Source: Escherichia coli O127:H6 str. E2348/69
GTDB taxonomy: Bacteria; Pseudomonadota; Gammaproteobacteria; Enterobacterales; Enterobacteriaceae
Length of the DNA stretch: 64,000 bases
Direction: 5' to 3' (one strand)
NCBI RefSeq assembly: GCF_000026545.1
Contig: NC_011601.1
Shown: positions 2,979 to 45,050 of the stretch, in pieces
Layout: every line of letters starts with the position of its first letter
Numbering within the stretch: the first letter of the stretch is position 1
Program-made: the position numbers and the translations under genes
The notes under the pieces: generated by a model
The model's input: only the letters and a program-made list of their open reading frames with translations
Databases searched by the model: none
Told to the model about the DNA's origin: nothing

Positions 2979-3887
2979 TTATTCTTCGCGGATGCCGGAA
3001 AGTTCTGCACGGGAGAGCACCAGACGGGCGCGATCGATAACCGGACCGTCCACCATCTTGCCGTTCAGGGAAACCACGCCGAGGCCTTCGCGAGCGGCGG
3101 CTTCAGCGGCTTCTACGACGCGGCGGGCGTGATCCACTTCTTTCTGGGTCGGTGCGTAGAGGTTGTGCAGCAGATCAATCTGACGCGGGTTGATCAGCGA
3201 TTTGCCGTCAAAGCCCAGCTGTTTGATGTGGGCGGCTTCTTGCAGGAATCCGGCTTCGTTGTTAGCGTCGGAATAGACGGTATCGAACGCCTGAATACCC
3301 GCAGAACGCGCGGCCTGCAAAATGGAGCAGCGAGCGAACAGCAGTTCAGTTCCTTCCGGGGAGCGTTCTGTACGCAGGTTGCGCACATAGTCTTCTGCAC
3401 CGAGGGCGATACCGATCAAACGCTCGGAAGCGTGAGCGATTTCTACCGCGCGGGTAATGCCCAGCGGAGATTCAATCGCCGCCAGCAGGCCGGTGCTGCC
3501 GGGTTCACGACCACAGGCTTTTTCGATGCGCAGGATCTCTTTTTCGATATCCAGAACATCCTGAGCGGTATCGGTTTTCGGCAGACGCACAACGTCCGCA
3601 CCACCGCGAACGACGGCTTCCAGGTCGTTAACACCCCATTCGGAATCCAGCGCGTTTACACGCACAATGGTTTCAATATCGCGATACAGCGGATGTTGCA
3701 GCGCGTGGTAAACCATGCGGCGGGCGGTGTCTTTTTCACGCAATGCCACGGAGTCTTCGAGGTCAAACATCAGGGCATCAGCCGGGTAGATGAATGAGTT
3801 GCTGACCATCGCGGCATTGGCACCTGGCACAAACAGCATGCTGCGGCGGGTGCGAGTTTTACGTTGTTGCAGCGAAGCGGAAATCAT
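2979..3887 (-). CDS. citE: citrate lyase beta subunit (citryl-CoA lyase)
   Basis: ORF-track frame trimmed to ATG giving 302 aa (MISASLQQ...); ATGA overlap with citD stop. Confidence 0.9.
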
Positions 3888-40681: not shown

Positions 40682-40826
40682 CGACTTGCTCTTGCGAAAT
40701 AGTAGCCAGGAATGCAGGGCGCATAGTGTAATGCTTTGCTGCCGTTGTGACCAGTATGAGCGTTATCAGCCCTTGGGGGTAAAAATCCTGTAAACTTAAA
40801 GCATATTGCTAACAGGATGATTGACC

Positions 40827-42002
40827 ATGACAAATCAACCAACGGAAATTGCCATTGTCGGCGGAGGAATGGTCGGCGGCGCACTGGCGCTGGGACTGGC
40901 ACAGCACGGGTTTACGGTAACGGTTATTGAACATGCCCAGCCTGCGCCGTTTGTTGCGGACAGCCAGCCGGACGTGCGGATCTCGGCGATCAGCGCGGCT
41001 TCGGTATCATTGCTTAAAGGGGTAGGGGTCTGGGATGCAGTACAGGCTATGCGTTGCCATCCTTACCGCAGACTGGAAACGTGGGAGTGGGAAACGGCGC
41101 ATGTCGTGTTTGACGCCGCTGAACTTAAGCTACCGTTGCTTGGCTACATGGTGGAAAACACTGTCCTGCAACAGGCGTTGTGGCAGGCGCTGGAAGCGCA
41201 TCCGAAAGTAACGTTACGTGTGCCAGGCTCGCTGATTGCACAGCATCGCCATAATGATCTTCAGGAGCTGGAACTGAAGGGCGGTGAAACGATCCTCGCG
41301 AAGCTGGTGATTGGTGCCGACGGCGCAAATTCGCAGGTGCGACAGATGGCGGGAATTGGCGTTCATGCCTGGCAGTATGCGCAGTCGTGTATGTTGATTA
41401 GCGTACAGTGTGAGAACGATCCCGGCGACAGCACCTGGCAGCAATTTACCCCGGACGGACCGCGTGCGTTTCTGCCGTTGTTTGATAACTGGGCATCGCT
41501 GGTGTGGTATGACTCTCCGGCGCGCATTCGCCAGTTGCAGAATATGAATATGGCGCAGCTACAGGCGGAAATCGCGAAGCATTTCCCGTCGCGTCTGGGT
41601 TACGTGACACCGCTTGCCGCTGGTGCGTTTCCGCTGATACGTCGCCATGCGTTGCAGTATGTGCAACCAGGGCTTGCTCTGGTGGGCGATGCCGCGCATA
41701 CCATCCATCCGCTGGCGGGACAGGGAGTGAATCTTGGTTATCGTGATGTCGATGCCCTGATTGACGTTCTGGTGAACGCCCGCAGCTACGGCGAAGCGTG
41801 GGCCAGTTATCCTGTGCTCAAGCGTTACCAGATGCGGCGTATGGCGGATAACTTCATGATGCAAAGTGGTATGGATCTGTTTTATGCCGGATTCAGCAAT
41901 AATCTGCCACCGCTGCGTTTTGTGCGTAATCTTGGTTTGATGGCGGCGGAGCGTGCTGGCGTGTTGAAACGTAAGGCGCTGAAATATGCGTTAGGGTTGT
42001 AG
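40827..42002 (+). CDS. ubiF: FAD-dependent ubiquinone biosynthesis hydroxylase
   Basis: ORF-track frame starts at TTG 40821; ATG at 40827 (MTNQPTEIAIVGGGMVG...) gives 391 aa. Confidence 0.85.
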   Translation: MTNQPTEIAIVGGGMVGGALALGLAQHGFTVTVIEHAQPAPFVADSQPDVRISAISAASVSLLKGVGVWDAVQAMRCHPYRRLETWEWETAHVVFDAAELKLPLLGYMVENTVLQQALWQALEAHPKVTLRVPGSLIAQHRHNDLQELELKGGETILAKLVIGADGANSQVRQMAGIGVHAWQYAQSCMLISVQCENDPGDSTWQQFTPDGPRAFLPLFDNWASLVWYDSPARIRQLQNMNMAQLQAEIAKHFPSRLGYVTPLAAGAFPLIRRHALQYVQPGLALVGDAAHTIHPLAGQGVNLGYRDVDALIDVLVNARSYGEAWASYPVLKRYQMRRMADNFMMQSGMDLFYAGFSNNLPPLRFVRNLGLMAAERAGVLKRKALKYALGL

Positions 42003-42029
42003 CCTCACAACATTGCTGGATGCATGCCA

Positions 42030-42070
42030 ACCGTAGGTCGGATAAGACGCGGCAGCGTCGCATCCGACTT
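42030..42070. repeat. REP-type extragenic palindrome
   Basis: ccgtaggtcggataagacgcggcagcgtcgcatccgac; core shared with copy at 51378..51406. Confidence 0.6.
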
Positions 42071-42128
42071 TGAAGGATAAGACGAGTCAACATCGCATTC
42101 GGCATTGAATATACGCAGAAAAGCAAAA

Positions 42129-42151
42129 AGCTCGCCGAAGCGAGCTTTTTT
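42129..42151. terminator. bidirectional terminator (ubiF on +, tRNA operon on -)
   Basis: hairpin agctcgccgaagcgagct with T-runs on both strands. Confidence 0.65.
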
Positions 42152-42155
42152 AATG

Positions 42156-42230
42156 TGGCTGGGGTACGAGGATTCGAACCTCGGAATGCCGGAATCAGAA
42201 TCCGGTGCCTTACCGCTTGGCGATACCCCA
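42156..42230 (-). tRNA. glnV: tRNA-Gln (anticodon CUG)
   Basis: 75-nt reverse complement tggggtatcgccaagcggtaaggcaccggattctgattccgg...cca; symbol assigned by position. Confidence 0.9.
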
Positions 42231-42278
42231 ACAAATTGGTTTTTGAATTTGCCGAACATATTCGACACATTCAGAATT

Positions 42279-42355
42279 TGGTGGCTACGACGGGATTCGA
42301 ACCTGTGACCCCATCATTATGAGTGATGTGCTCTAACCAACTGAGCTACGTAGCC
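42279..42355 (-). tRNA. metU: tRNA-Met (elongator, anticodon CAU)
   Basis: 77-nt reverse complement ggctacgtagctcagttggttagagcacatcactcataatgatgg...acca. Confidence 0.9.
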
Positions 42356-42370
42356 AGATTGTTTCTTCGA

Positions 42371-42445
42371 TGGCTGGGGTACCTGGATTCGAACCAGGGA
42401 ATGCCGGTATCAAAAACCGGTGCCTTACCGCTTGGCGATACCCCA
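42371..42445 (-). tRNA. glnW: tRNA-Gln (anticodon UUG)
   Basis: 75-nt tRNA, anticodon loop ccggtttttgataccgg on - strand. Confidence 0.9.
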
Positions 42446-42479
42446 ATAACCGGGCGCTGAACCGCTTATTCGAAGAATA

Positions 42480-42554
42480 TGGCTGGGGTACCTGGATTCG
42501 AACCAGGGAATGCCGGTATCAAAAACCGGTGCCTTACCGCTTGGCGATACCCCA
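42480..42554 (-). tRNA. glnU: tRNA-Gln (anticodon UUG)
   Basis: identical 75-nt copy of the preceding tRNA-Gln(UUG). Confidence 0.9.
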
Positions 42555-42577
42555 TCCGTACAACGCTTTCTGGTGAA

Positions 42578-42662
42578 TGGTGCGGGAGGCGAGACTTGAA
42601 CTCGCACACCTTGCGGCGCCAGAACCTAAATCTGGTGCGTCTACCAATTTCGCCACTCCCGC
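42578..42662 (-). tRNA. leuW: tRNA-Leu (anticodon UAG)
   Basis: 85-nt class II tRNA gcgggagtggcgaaattggtagacgcaccagatttaggttctgg...cacca. Confidence 0.9.
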
Positions 42663-42672
42663 AAAAAAAAGA

Positions 42673-42749
42673 TGGTGGCTACGACGGGATTCGAACCTGT
42701 GACCCCATCATTATGAGTGATGTGCTCTAACCAACTGAGCTACGTAGCC
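42673..42749 (-). tRNA. metT: tRNA-Met (elongator, anticodon CAU)
   Basis: 77-nt copy identical to 42279..42355; first gene of the operon. Confidence 0.9.
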
Positions 42750-43129
42750 ATCTTTTTTTTCGCGATACCTTATCGGCGTTGCGGGGCGCATTATGCGTAT
42801 AGAGCCTTGCAGCGTCAACCTCTTTTTCAAGGAAAATTGCTCGAAAGTGACTGTTTGGTTAGGTTGCGAACAGCATGGCGCTATATTCGTCAATTATTGT
42901 TTACTTTGTGTTTTTTCCCCACCCTACAGCCATTCTTTTGTCATACAGGATGAAATTCGGAATTCAACAATAGTGGTGGGAAATTAATCTATGAAATACT
43001 GGCCTACAGTAATGAGTTGTCAAACAGCGATGTGGCAAACCCGGAACATTTCCTTACTGCATATCAGAATCAACAAGCGCCCCAGTAACTGAAATTGCCC
43101 CGGATTTCTCCGGGGCAATATTACACGTC

Positions 43130-44794
43130 TTATTTATATGCCGACTGGTGAACGCCAACCGCGCGACCAGACGGATCGTCCATTTTCTTGAACGCTTCAT
43201 CCCACTCAATCGCTTTAGCGGAAGAACAAGCGACGGAAGGACCGCCCGGCACGCACTCAGCGGCGCTCGGAAGCGGGAACAATTCTTCAAAGATCTCCCG
43301 GTACAGATACGCTTCTTTTGAGGTCGGCGTGTTGAACGGGAAGCGGAAGCGGGCAGTTTCCAGCTGTTGATCAGAAACCTGCTGCGCTGCCACTTCTTTC
43401 AGGGTGTCGATCCAACTGTAACCGACGCCATCGGAGAACTGCTCTTTTTGCCGCCAGGCCACGCTTGCAGGCAGATACGCTTCAAAACATTCACGCAGGA
43501 TGTGTTTTTCCATTTTGCCGTTACCGCACATTTTATCCTGTGGGTTAATGCGCATCGCCACATCAAGGAATTTTTTGTCGAGGAACGGAACGCGTGCTTC
43601 CACGCCCCAGGCTGACATCGCTTTGTTGGCACGCGCGCAGTCATACATATGCAGGGCCAGCAGTTTACGCACCGTCTCTTCATGCAACTCTTTAGCGTTC
43701 GGCGCTTTGTGGAAGTATAGATAACCGCCAAACACTTCGTCAGAACCTTCACCGGACAGCACCATTTTAATGCCCATCGCCTTGATCTTACGCGACATTA
43801 AATACATCGGTGTTGAAGCGCGAATAGTGGTCACATCATAAGTTTCGATGTGGTAAATCACGTCGCGGATGGCATCCAGACCTTCCTGTACAGTGAAGTG
43901 AATTTCGTGATGCACCGTGCCAAGATGGTTTGCCACTTCCTGGGCGGCTTTCAGATCCGGTGAACCCGGCAGACCTACAGCAAAAGAGTGCAACTGCGGC
44001 CACCAGGCTTCAGAGCGTTCCTGATCTTCCACGCGACGGGCGGCGTATTTCTTGGTGATAGCGGAAATAATTGAGGAATCCAGACCACCAGAAAGCAGCA
44101 CACCGTAAGGCACATCAGACATCAGATGGCTTTTAACGGAATCTTCCAGTGCCTGACGCAGCTCGTTTTTGTCGGTCACGTTATCTTTCACCGCATCGTA
44201 GTCGAACCAGTCGCGATGATAATAAGAACGGATTTCGCCGTCCTGACTCCACAAATAGCTCCCCGCCGGAAACTCTTTAATCGTGCGGCAAACTGGCACG
44301 AGGGCTTTCATTTCTGAGGCCACATACAGCTGACCGTGTTCGTCATAGCCCATATACAGTGGGATGATCCCCAGATGGTCGCGACCAATCAGATATGCAT
44401 CTTTTTCGCTGTCGTACAGGGCAAAGGCAAACATGCCCTGCAAGTCGTCGAGAAATTCCGGCCCTTTTTCCTGATACAGCGCGAGGATCACTTCACAGTC
44501 AGACCCGGTCTGGAACTGGTAACGATCGCCATATTCAGCGCGCAATGCCTGGTGGTTGTAGATTTCACCGTTTACTGCCAGCACATGAGTTTTTTGTTGG
44601 TTGTAGAGAGGTTGCGCCCCCGCGTTAACGTCAACAATTGACAGACGTTCGTGGGCGAGGATGGCGTTATCGCTGGCATAAATACCGGACCAGTCCGGGC
44701 CACGATGACGCATCAGGCGTGACAGCTCGAGTGCTTTCTTACGCAGCTCAACTGCGTCTGTTTTGATATCGAATACGCCAAAAATTGAACACAT
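43130..44794 (-). CDS. asnB: asparagine synthetase B (glutamine-hydrolysing)
   Basis: ORF-track frame 43130..44875 trimmed to ATG at 44794 (MCSIFGVFD...) giving 554 aa. Confidence 0.95.
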   Translation of the reverse strand: MCSIFGVFDIKTDAVELRKKALELSRLMRHRGPDWSGIYASDNAILAHERLSIVDVNAGAQPLYNQQKTHVLAVNGEIYNHQALRAEYGDRYQFQTGSDCEVILALYQEKGPEFLDDLQGMFAFALYDSEKDAYLIGRDHLGIIPLYMGYDEHGQLYVASEMKALVPVCRTIKEFPAGSYLWSQDGEIRSYYHRDWFDYDAVKDNVTDKNELRQALEDSVKSHLMSDVPYGVLLSGGLDSSIISAITKKYAARRVEDQERSEAWWPQLHSFAVGLPGSPDLKAAQEVANHLGTVHHEIHFTVQEGLDAIRDVIYHIETYDVTTIRASTPMYLMSRKIKAMGIKMVLSGEGSDEVFGGYLYFHKAPNAKELHEETVRKLLALHMYDCARANKAMSAWGVEARVPFLDKKFLDVAMRINPQDKMCGNGKMEKHILRECFEAYLPASVAWRQKEQFSDGVGYSWIDTLKEVAAQQVSDQQLETARFRFPFNTPTSKEAYLYREIFEELFPLPSAAECVPGGPSVACSSAKAIEWDEAFKKMDDPSGRAVGVHQSAYK

Positions 44795-45050
44795 AACCTT
44801 CTCCGTTAACCTGGTATTTGTTGCTTGTTGTGTTTGCTTGTTTAAAAAAATGCCGCAAAGCAGCACTGTGCGCAAGCGATTTGGCGGTGGAAAAATAAAA
44901 AACGTAATGGCGATTGCTGATTTGTAAAAAAGGATAGGGTATGGTGGCGTATTTATTGATGGATCGATAATTTTTGACGGGTTTTATTGAATAGGGTGAT
45001 TTTAATGATGGGTAAAAATAAGAAACCACGCCTTGAGGCGTGGTTGCTAT

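Follow-up and report, generated by a model that had tools for sequence, protein, structure and literature searches.

The metT tRNA operon of Escherichia coli E2348/69 has almost certainly lost exactly one 112-bp period, through misalignment of a 77-bp repeat that collapsed its tandem pair of tRNA-Gln(CUG) genes. The locus lies in a stretch of 64,000 nucleotides of the E2348/69 chromosome (NC_011601.1), referred to here as the window, and unlabelled coordinates are positions in that stretch. The case is a copy-number polymorphism in a textbook tRNA operon, ordinary in nature and recurrent, known in kind and visible in public annotation.

The locus is a metT operon with six tRNA genes

Six tRNA genes were detected by ARAGORN and by Rfam model RF00005 on the minus strand at 42156-42749, in the order Met-Leu(UAG)-Gln(UUG)-Gln(UUG)-Met-Gln(CUG). 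Their Rfam scores range from 57.6 to 71.1 bits, the gathering score being 29. When ARAGORN was run over the whole 64-kb window, no seventh tRNA was found. The features of the region are as follows.

40821-42002, plus strand: ubiF open reading frame (annotation of the identical E2348/69 record)
42115-42150, minus strand: strong intrinsic (Rho-independent) terminator-like signal after the last gene, consisting of a hairpin (42150-42125) and a T-rich tail that extends to about 42115
42156-42230, minus strand: the single tRNA-Gln(CTG) (ARAGORN and Rfam, 62.0 bits)
42156-42232, minus strand: remaining copy of the perfect direct repeat of 77 bp, comprising the gene and 2 nt upstream (alignment and repeat analysis)
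42231-42278, minus strand: metU-to-Gln(CUG) spacer of 48 nt, equal to the leader before glnV in seven-gene strains (alignment)
42279-42355, minus strand: elongator tRNA-Met(CAT), metU position (ARAGORN and Rfam, 71.1 bits)
42371-42445, minus strand: tRNA-Gln(TTG), glnW position, same sequence as glnU (ARAGORN and Rfam)
42480-42554, minus strand: tRNA-Gln(TTG), glnU position (ARAGORN and Rfam, 62.1 bits)
42578-42662, minus strand: tRNA-Leu(TAG), leuW position (ARAGORN and Rfam, 57.6 bits)
42673-42749, minus strand: elongator tRNA-Met(CAT), metT position (ARAGORN and Rfam, 71.1 bits)
42790-42818, minus strand: sigma-70-type promoter-like site (TTGACG, 17-nt spacer, CATAAT), followed by the G+C-rich stretch gcgccccgc (consensus match)
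43130-44875, minus strand: asnB open reading frame (annotation of the identical E2348/69 record)

The genes at the metT and metU positions have the same sequence, as determined by an exact-match count. The operon is located between asnB, on the same strand, and the convergent ubiF, which is the position expected of the enterobacterial metT operon, and over 1.6 kb around the tRNA genes the sequence agrees at 100% of positions with the chromosome of enteropathogenic E. coli (EPEC) E2348/69. These observations identify the locus as the chromosomal metT tRNA operon of this strain, a single transcription unit. Compared with the seven-gene metT order, positions 1 to 6 agree and the seventh gene is missing. 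Since the flanks, spacers and terminator are the same as in seven-gene strains, the locus is a deletion allele of the metT operon and not a different operon.

A preliminary description of this DNA had already proposed a six-gene operon, and its gene order, anticodons, coordinates and strand agree exactly with the ARAGORN and Rfam results. Of the two findings that it had named as contradicting it, a seventh tRNA or a single Gln(CUG) gene in K-12, neither was made, as K-12 HMS174 has two such genes.

Exactly one 112-bp period is missing

The operon has seven genes in K-12 substr. HMS174, in Nissle 1917 (EcN) and in a strain of ST131, and in all three a pair of neighbouring Gln(CUG) genes lies beside ubiF. 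The seven-gene K-12 structure with glnV and glnX that the preliminary description had named is thus borne out by the HMS174 sequence and by published work on this polycistronic operon (PMC2241853). Alignment of the window with K-12, EcN and ST131 revealed one clean gap of 112 columns in otherwise near-identical sequence. In EcN, the closest seven-gene relative of the window in this comparison, the starts of the Gln(CUG) genes are separated by 112 bp, and each gene of 75 nt forms, with 2 nt more, a perfect direct repeat of 77 bp. The lost unit of 112 bp corresponds to the 75-nt gene together with the 37-nt glnV-glnX spacer; one gene is indeed missing, as had been proposed, although the unit lost is 112 bp long and not 75 nt. 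Removal of one period from EcN in silico reproduced window positions 42060-42400 at 341 of 341 positions.

The 48-nt spacer upstream of the surviving gene is the same as the one between metU and glnV in EcN and ST131. The surviving Gln(CUG) gene therefore combines a glnV-type leader upstream with a glnX-type trailer and terminator downstream. The deletion junction lies somewhere within 42156-42232, and this interval is as fine as its placement becomes.

Promoter, terminator and processing signals

The promoter-like site is 41 nt upstream of the first tRNA gene, at the metT position. It matches the consensus at 10 of 12 positions and is the sole such site in 41900-43200, a number that does not exceed what shuffled sequences gave (mean 1.8). 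The K-12 metT operon is transcribed from a single promoter, whose place agrees with that of the site in the window, and experiments have been done on the terminator of that operon (PMC2241853). In the window, the terminator stem consists of 11 pairs (AAAAAGCTCGC TTCG GCGAGCTTTTT) with the T-rich tail directly following, and it has the same sequence as the one found after glnX in K-12, EcN and ST131. A putative promoter upstream and a predicted terminator after the last gene, as looked for in a metT operon, thus both appear to be present. A REP-like palindrome (…gtcggatgcgacgctgccgcgtcttatccgacctacg…) was recognised by eye in window positions 42003-42110, between the ubiF stop codon and the terminator.

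Both the metU trailer, CCAAAUUCU, and the trailer of the last Gln gene, CCACAUUAA, are present in the window, and for K-12 they are listed among the efficient contexts for RNase E (PMC2241853). All processing signals of the operon are kept, except for the glnV trailer itself.

Frequency of copy-number variants in E. coli

The distribution of the two forms was surveyed in 5426 complete E. coli genomes. The Gln(CUG) tandem spacer was found in 5268, and the single-copy junction, defined as a contiguous match over the metU spacer, a single Gln(CUG) gene and the terminator, was found in 151 (2.8%), a count that takes in doubtful assemblies, so that the frequency of the plain six-gene form may be somewhat lower. 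Genes of the metT operon have been reported to be essential (PMC6265465), and for this reason a few of the 151 are probably mis-assembled or rearranged. Three or more Gln(CUG) copies were present in about 27-29 genomes: a spacer-tRNA-spacer query matched 29 at a coverage of at least 80% and 27 at essentially full length. The shares are therefore approximately 97% with two copies, 3% with one and 0.5% with three or more. Among the single-copy genomes are those of the type strain DSM 30083, enterotoxigenic E. coli (ETEC) E24377A, an O26 strain, O139:H1 strains and BH100. At the other extreme, an expansion was checked in Rosetta2-DE3, which has eight genes, as three Gln genes stand in tandem where the Gln(CUG) pair is otherwise located.

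The sister Gln(UUG) pair (42371-42554) is unstable like the Gln(CUG) pair. Its glnU/glnW tandem spacer, counted with a spacer-specific query, was found in 5341 of the 5426 genomes and is missing from about 85. A Gln(UUG) junction query at 80% coverage does not separate the forms, as BLAST pieces join in seven-gene genomes; the best 25 matches to it were all single-copy forms. In AVS0456, a single Gln(UUG) gene (1419-1493) is accompanied by two Gln(CUG) genes.

Several other arrangements were observed at this locus. leuW was present in the metT operon context in 5412 of the 5426 genomes and missing from it in 13-14. In the MC1061 assembly (NZ_CP195014.1, 1571-1769), only a tRNA-Met and a tRNA-Gln(CUG) gene are located between ubiF and asnB; leuW, glnU, glnW and one Met gene are missing, and the flanks are the same as in K-12. 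This locus is probably a collapsed assembly, because the missing genes are reported to be essential (PMC6265465). In IH5 (NZ_CP168269.1), one tRNA-Met gene (1501-1576) adjoins asnB with purH next to it, and three tandem Gln(CUG) genes are found at 2544228-2544377, about 1.6 Mb away. This arrangement suggests that the operon was split by a large rearrangement or a mis-join with its breakpoint within the operon. Finally, ST131 (2997-3434), AVS0456 (2021-2458) and some other strains have a 438-bp open reading frame for a hypothetical protein (WP_000943484.1), situated between asnB and the metT promoter region; it is missing from the window, K-12 and EcN.

The single copy is derived and has arisen repeatedly

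Two tandem Gln(CUG) genes are the ancestral state and the single copy of E2348/69 is derived, since the tandem is found in the great majority of genomes and on diverse backgrounds, and since Salmonella has the same operon. In Salmonella Typhimurium, this is a seven-gene operon with glnV and glnX (PMC5400242).

Flanking sequences were compared at 1079 ungapped sites in 15 loci. O26 strain RM10386, with one copy, showed no differences (0/1079) from O111:H11 and one from O104:H4, both of which have two copies. E24377A, also with one copy, differs at 5 sites from the two-copy O104:H4. The one-copy O139:H1 locus has a haplotype of its own, with at least 35 differences from each other locus. E2348/69, DSM 30083 and BH100N, all with one copy, are 5-10 differences apart and differ from EcN at 13-17 sites; their deletion may be one event inherited within a B2 subgroup. 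One-copy genomes are thus found on at least four flanking haplotypes, several of them nearest to two-copy genomes, which shows that a Gln(CUG) copy has been deleted at least four times independently.

A model for the deletion

What the analysis shows is the structure of the locus, the precise deletion, and its derived state, frequency and recurrence; from there on, we infer both the molecular mechanism and the physiological effect of the deletion. In the proposed mechanism, the 77-bp perfect direct repeats would misalign and one 112-bp period would be lost, either by unequal exchange between sister chromosomes or by slipped-strand misalignment at replication. The product is one hybrid Gln(CUG) gene, its leader being that of glnV and its trailer and terminator those of glnX, and the signals for transcription and processing are intact. 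If the tandem repeat is unstable, three-copy forms and recurrent deletions are expected. The locus has the features of a tandem-repeat deletion: the repeats bounding it are perfect, an exact period is gone with no extra or missing bases, and one hybrid copy remains. Reciprocal expansions occur, and the deletion recurs on different backgrounds.

The preliminary description had attributed the loss to recombination between tandem repeats. The exact loss of one period, the 77-bp repeat, the expansions and the recurrence all favor this view, with the qualification that replication slippage gives the same product as recombination. RecA-dependent exchange and RecA-independent slippage would fit alike, as both would leave the same sequence behind. 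From what is known of short tandem repeats in E. coli, slippage would be no less probable than exchange at a repeat of 77 bp.

Alternatives to a derived, neutral deletion

A 112-bp tandem could be collapsed by an assembler, in which case E2348/69 would really have two Gln(CUG) genes. Complete assemblies that are implausible at this locus do exist, namely MC1061 and the 13-14 genomes without leuW, in spite of the essential genes involved (PMC6265465). Against this, six genes are present in three separate deposits of the E2348/69 lineage, CP059840.2, LT827011.1 ('variety 2', which came by way of Imperial College from the Sanger Centre) and LT903847.1 (derived from LT827011.1), and the close relatives DSM 30083 and BH100N likewise have the six-gene form. 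Ordinary sequencing reads are also longer than a 112-bp period with its repeat of 77 bp and easily span it. An artefact is thus extremely improbable, and we rejected it on the agreement of the three lineage assemblies. We regard it as equally hard to believe that one copy is the ancestral number, kept in E2348/69, and that duplication produced two copies elsewhere. Duplications do happen at the locus, as the three-copy forms indicate, but the tandem is present in 5268 of 5426 genomes, including K-12, B1 and B2 strains, the Salmonella Typhimurium operon has both glnV and glnX (PMC5400242), and one-copy genomes belong to several unrelated haplotypes, the closest neighbours of which carry two copies. 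This possibility was rejected in turn, on the grounds that the tandem is near-universal in E. coli and is also found in Salmonella.

Selection for a lower dosage of tRNA-Gln(CUG), for example in the B2 subgroup of E2348/69, DSM 30083 and BH100, would make the single-copy allele non-neutral. The single copy shared by E2348/69, DSM 30083 and BH100N, with 5-10 flanking differences, fits one deletion retained by a clade, and there are about five single-copy forms for every three-copy form. Sharing within a clade is, however, equally expected of a neutral or mildly deleterious deletion. In tandem repeats generally, deletions exceed duplications. Furthermore, CAG is the majority Gln codon (74%), and a smaller supply of the dedicated tRNA offers no obvious benefit. 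We consider selection of this kind very unlikely. The broader proposal that both Gln pairs act as a rapidly reversible dosage switch, with one, two or three copies interchanging at appreciable rates and particular states, for instance the single Gln(CUG) copy in the B2 subgroup of E2348/69 and the type strain, held by selection on the tRNA pool and not by drift, is similarly doubtful and is given little weight here. The collapse of an ancestral tandem by repeat misalignment remains the favored reading by far, and no observation ran counter to the structure that it describes.

Expected consequences and the suppressor connection

To our knowledge, all four Gln tRNA genes of K-12 are located within the metT operon, and it follows that E2348/69 would have one tRNA-Gln(CUG) gene and two tRNA-Gln(UUG) genes. 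A 215-nt query containing Gln(CUG) matched the E2348/69 chromosome in only two places, of which the one with reported coordinates is inside the operon; this lends indirect support to the absence of a further Gln(CUG) gene. As the promoter, the terminator and the processing contexts are kept, the sole effect expected on tRNA supply would be a halved gene dosage of tRNA-Gln(CUG), which reads CAG. This codon accounts for 74% of Gln codons in 31 long open reading frames of the window. tRNA-Gln(UUG) can read CAG as well, by wobble. Any cost must be small, given that the allele occurs in healthy and widely used strains.

In the classical amber suppressor supE44, the anticodon of one Gln(CUG) copy of the pair is mutated, glnX44 (PMC4444293, PMC11148124). 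The supE-type route depends on the second Gln(CUG) copy that remains. One-copy strains have no spare Gln(CUG) gene, and a supE-type amber suppressor would there need a mutation of the sole gene. We also observed that J53-p131 (NZ_CP111004.1, 1204-1278, minus strand) has, at the glnV position, a gene with the anticodon CTA, of the amber-suppressor type, together with a G4-to-A change in the acceptor stem. This gene is unannotated by PGAP and is called 'Pyl' by ARAGORN. A pattern search of J53 for a plain CTG-to-CTA allele gave no match, the gene carrying G4-to-A as well. The published supE44 is assigned to glnX (PMC4444293) and the J53 mutation is at glnV; the J53 allele is therefore either different from supE44 or was moved by gene conversion.

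A literature search found no published description of this Gln(CUG) polymorphism, and the Gln genes are unmentioned in McDonald et al. 2015 and in a 2023 eLife paper on translational redundancy. The number of tRNA-Gln(CUG) genes is not fixed in E. coli, which matters little beyond housekeeping. The one-copy minority does include E2348/69, an EPEC reference in wide use, and DSM 30083, the type strain of the species, and models of tRNA adaptation or codon usage that assume K-12 gene counts are affected. Gln(CUG) copy number can also serve as a check of assembly quality at tandem tRNA arrays.

Comparison with known systems

The window shares with the seven-gene metT operon of K-12 the position between ubiF and asnB, the gene order, the anticodons and the terminator sequence, and the Met, Gln(UUG) and Gln(CUG) gene sequences that were compared are identical. 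It differs in lacking one Gln(CUG) gene and the 37-nt spacer, with a survivor composed of the glnV leader and the glnX trailer.

A related event is on record for the metT operon of Salmonella, where spontaneous recombination between metT and metU on a plasmid converted pUST313 into pUST314 (PMC5400242). As proposed for E2348/69, identical tRNA genes of the operon misaligned, the interval between them was lost and one hybrid gene was left. The pUST314 event, however, arose between Met genes carried by a multicopy plasmid and cost it leuW-glnU-glnW, whereas that in E2348/69 is chromosomal, involves adjacent Gln(CUG) genes and removed only a redundant copy. The polymorphism also resembles known tandem arrays of identical tRNA genes whose number varies among strains of one species, although those are at another locus and concern another tRNA.
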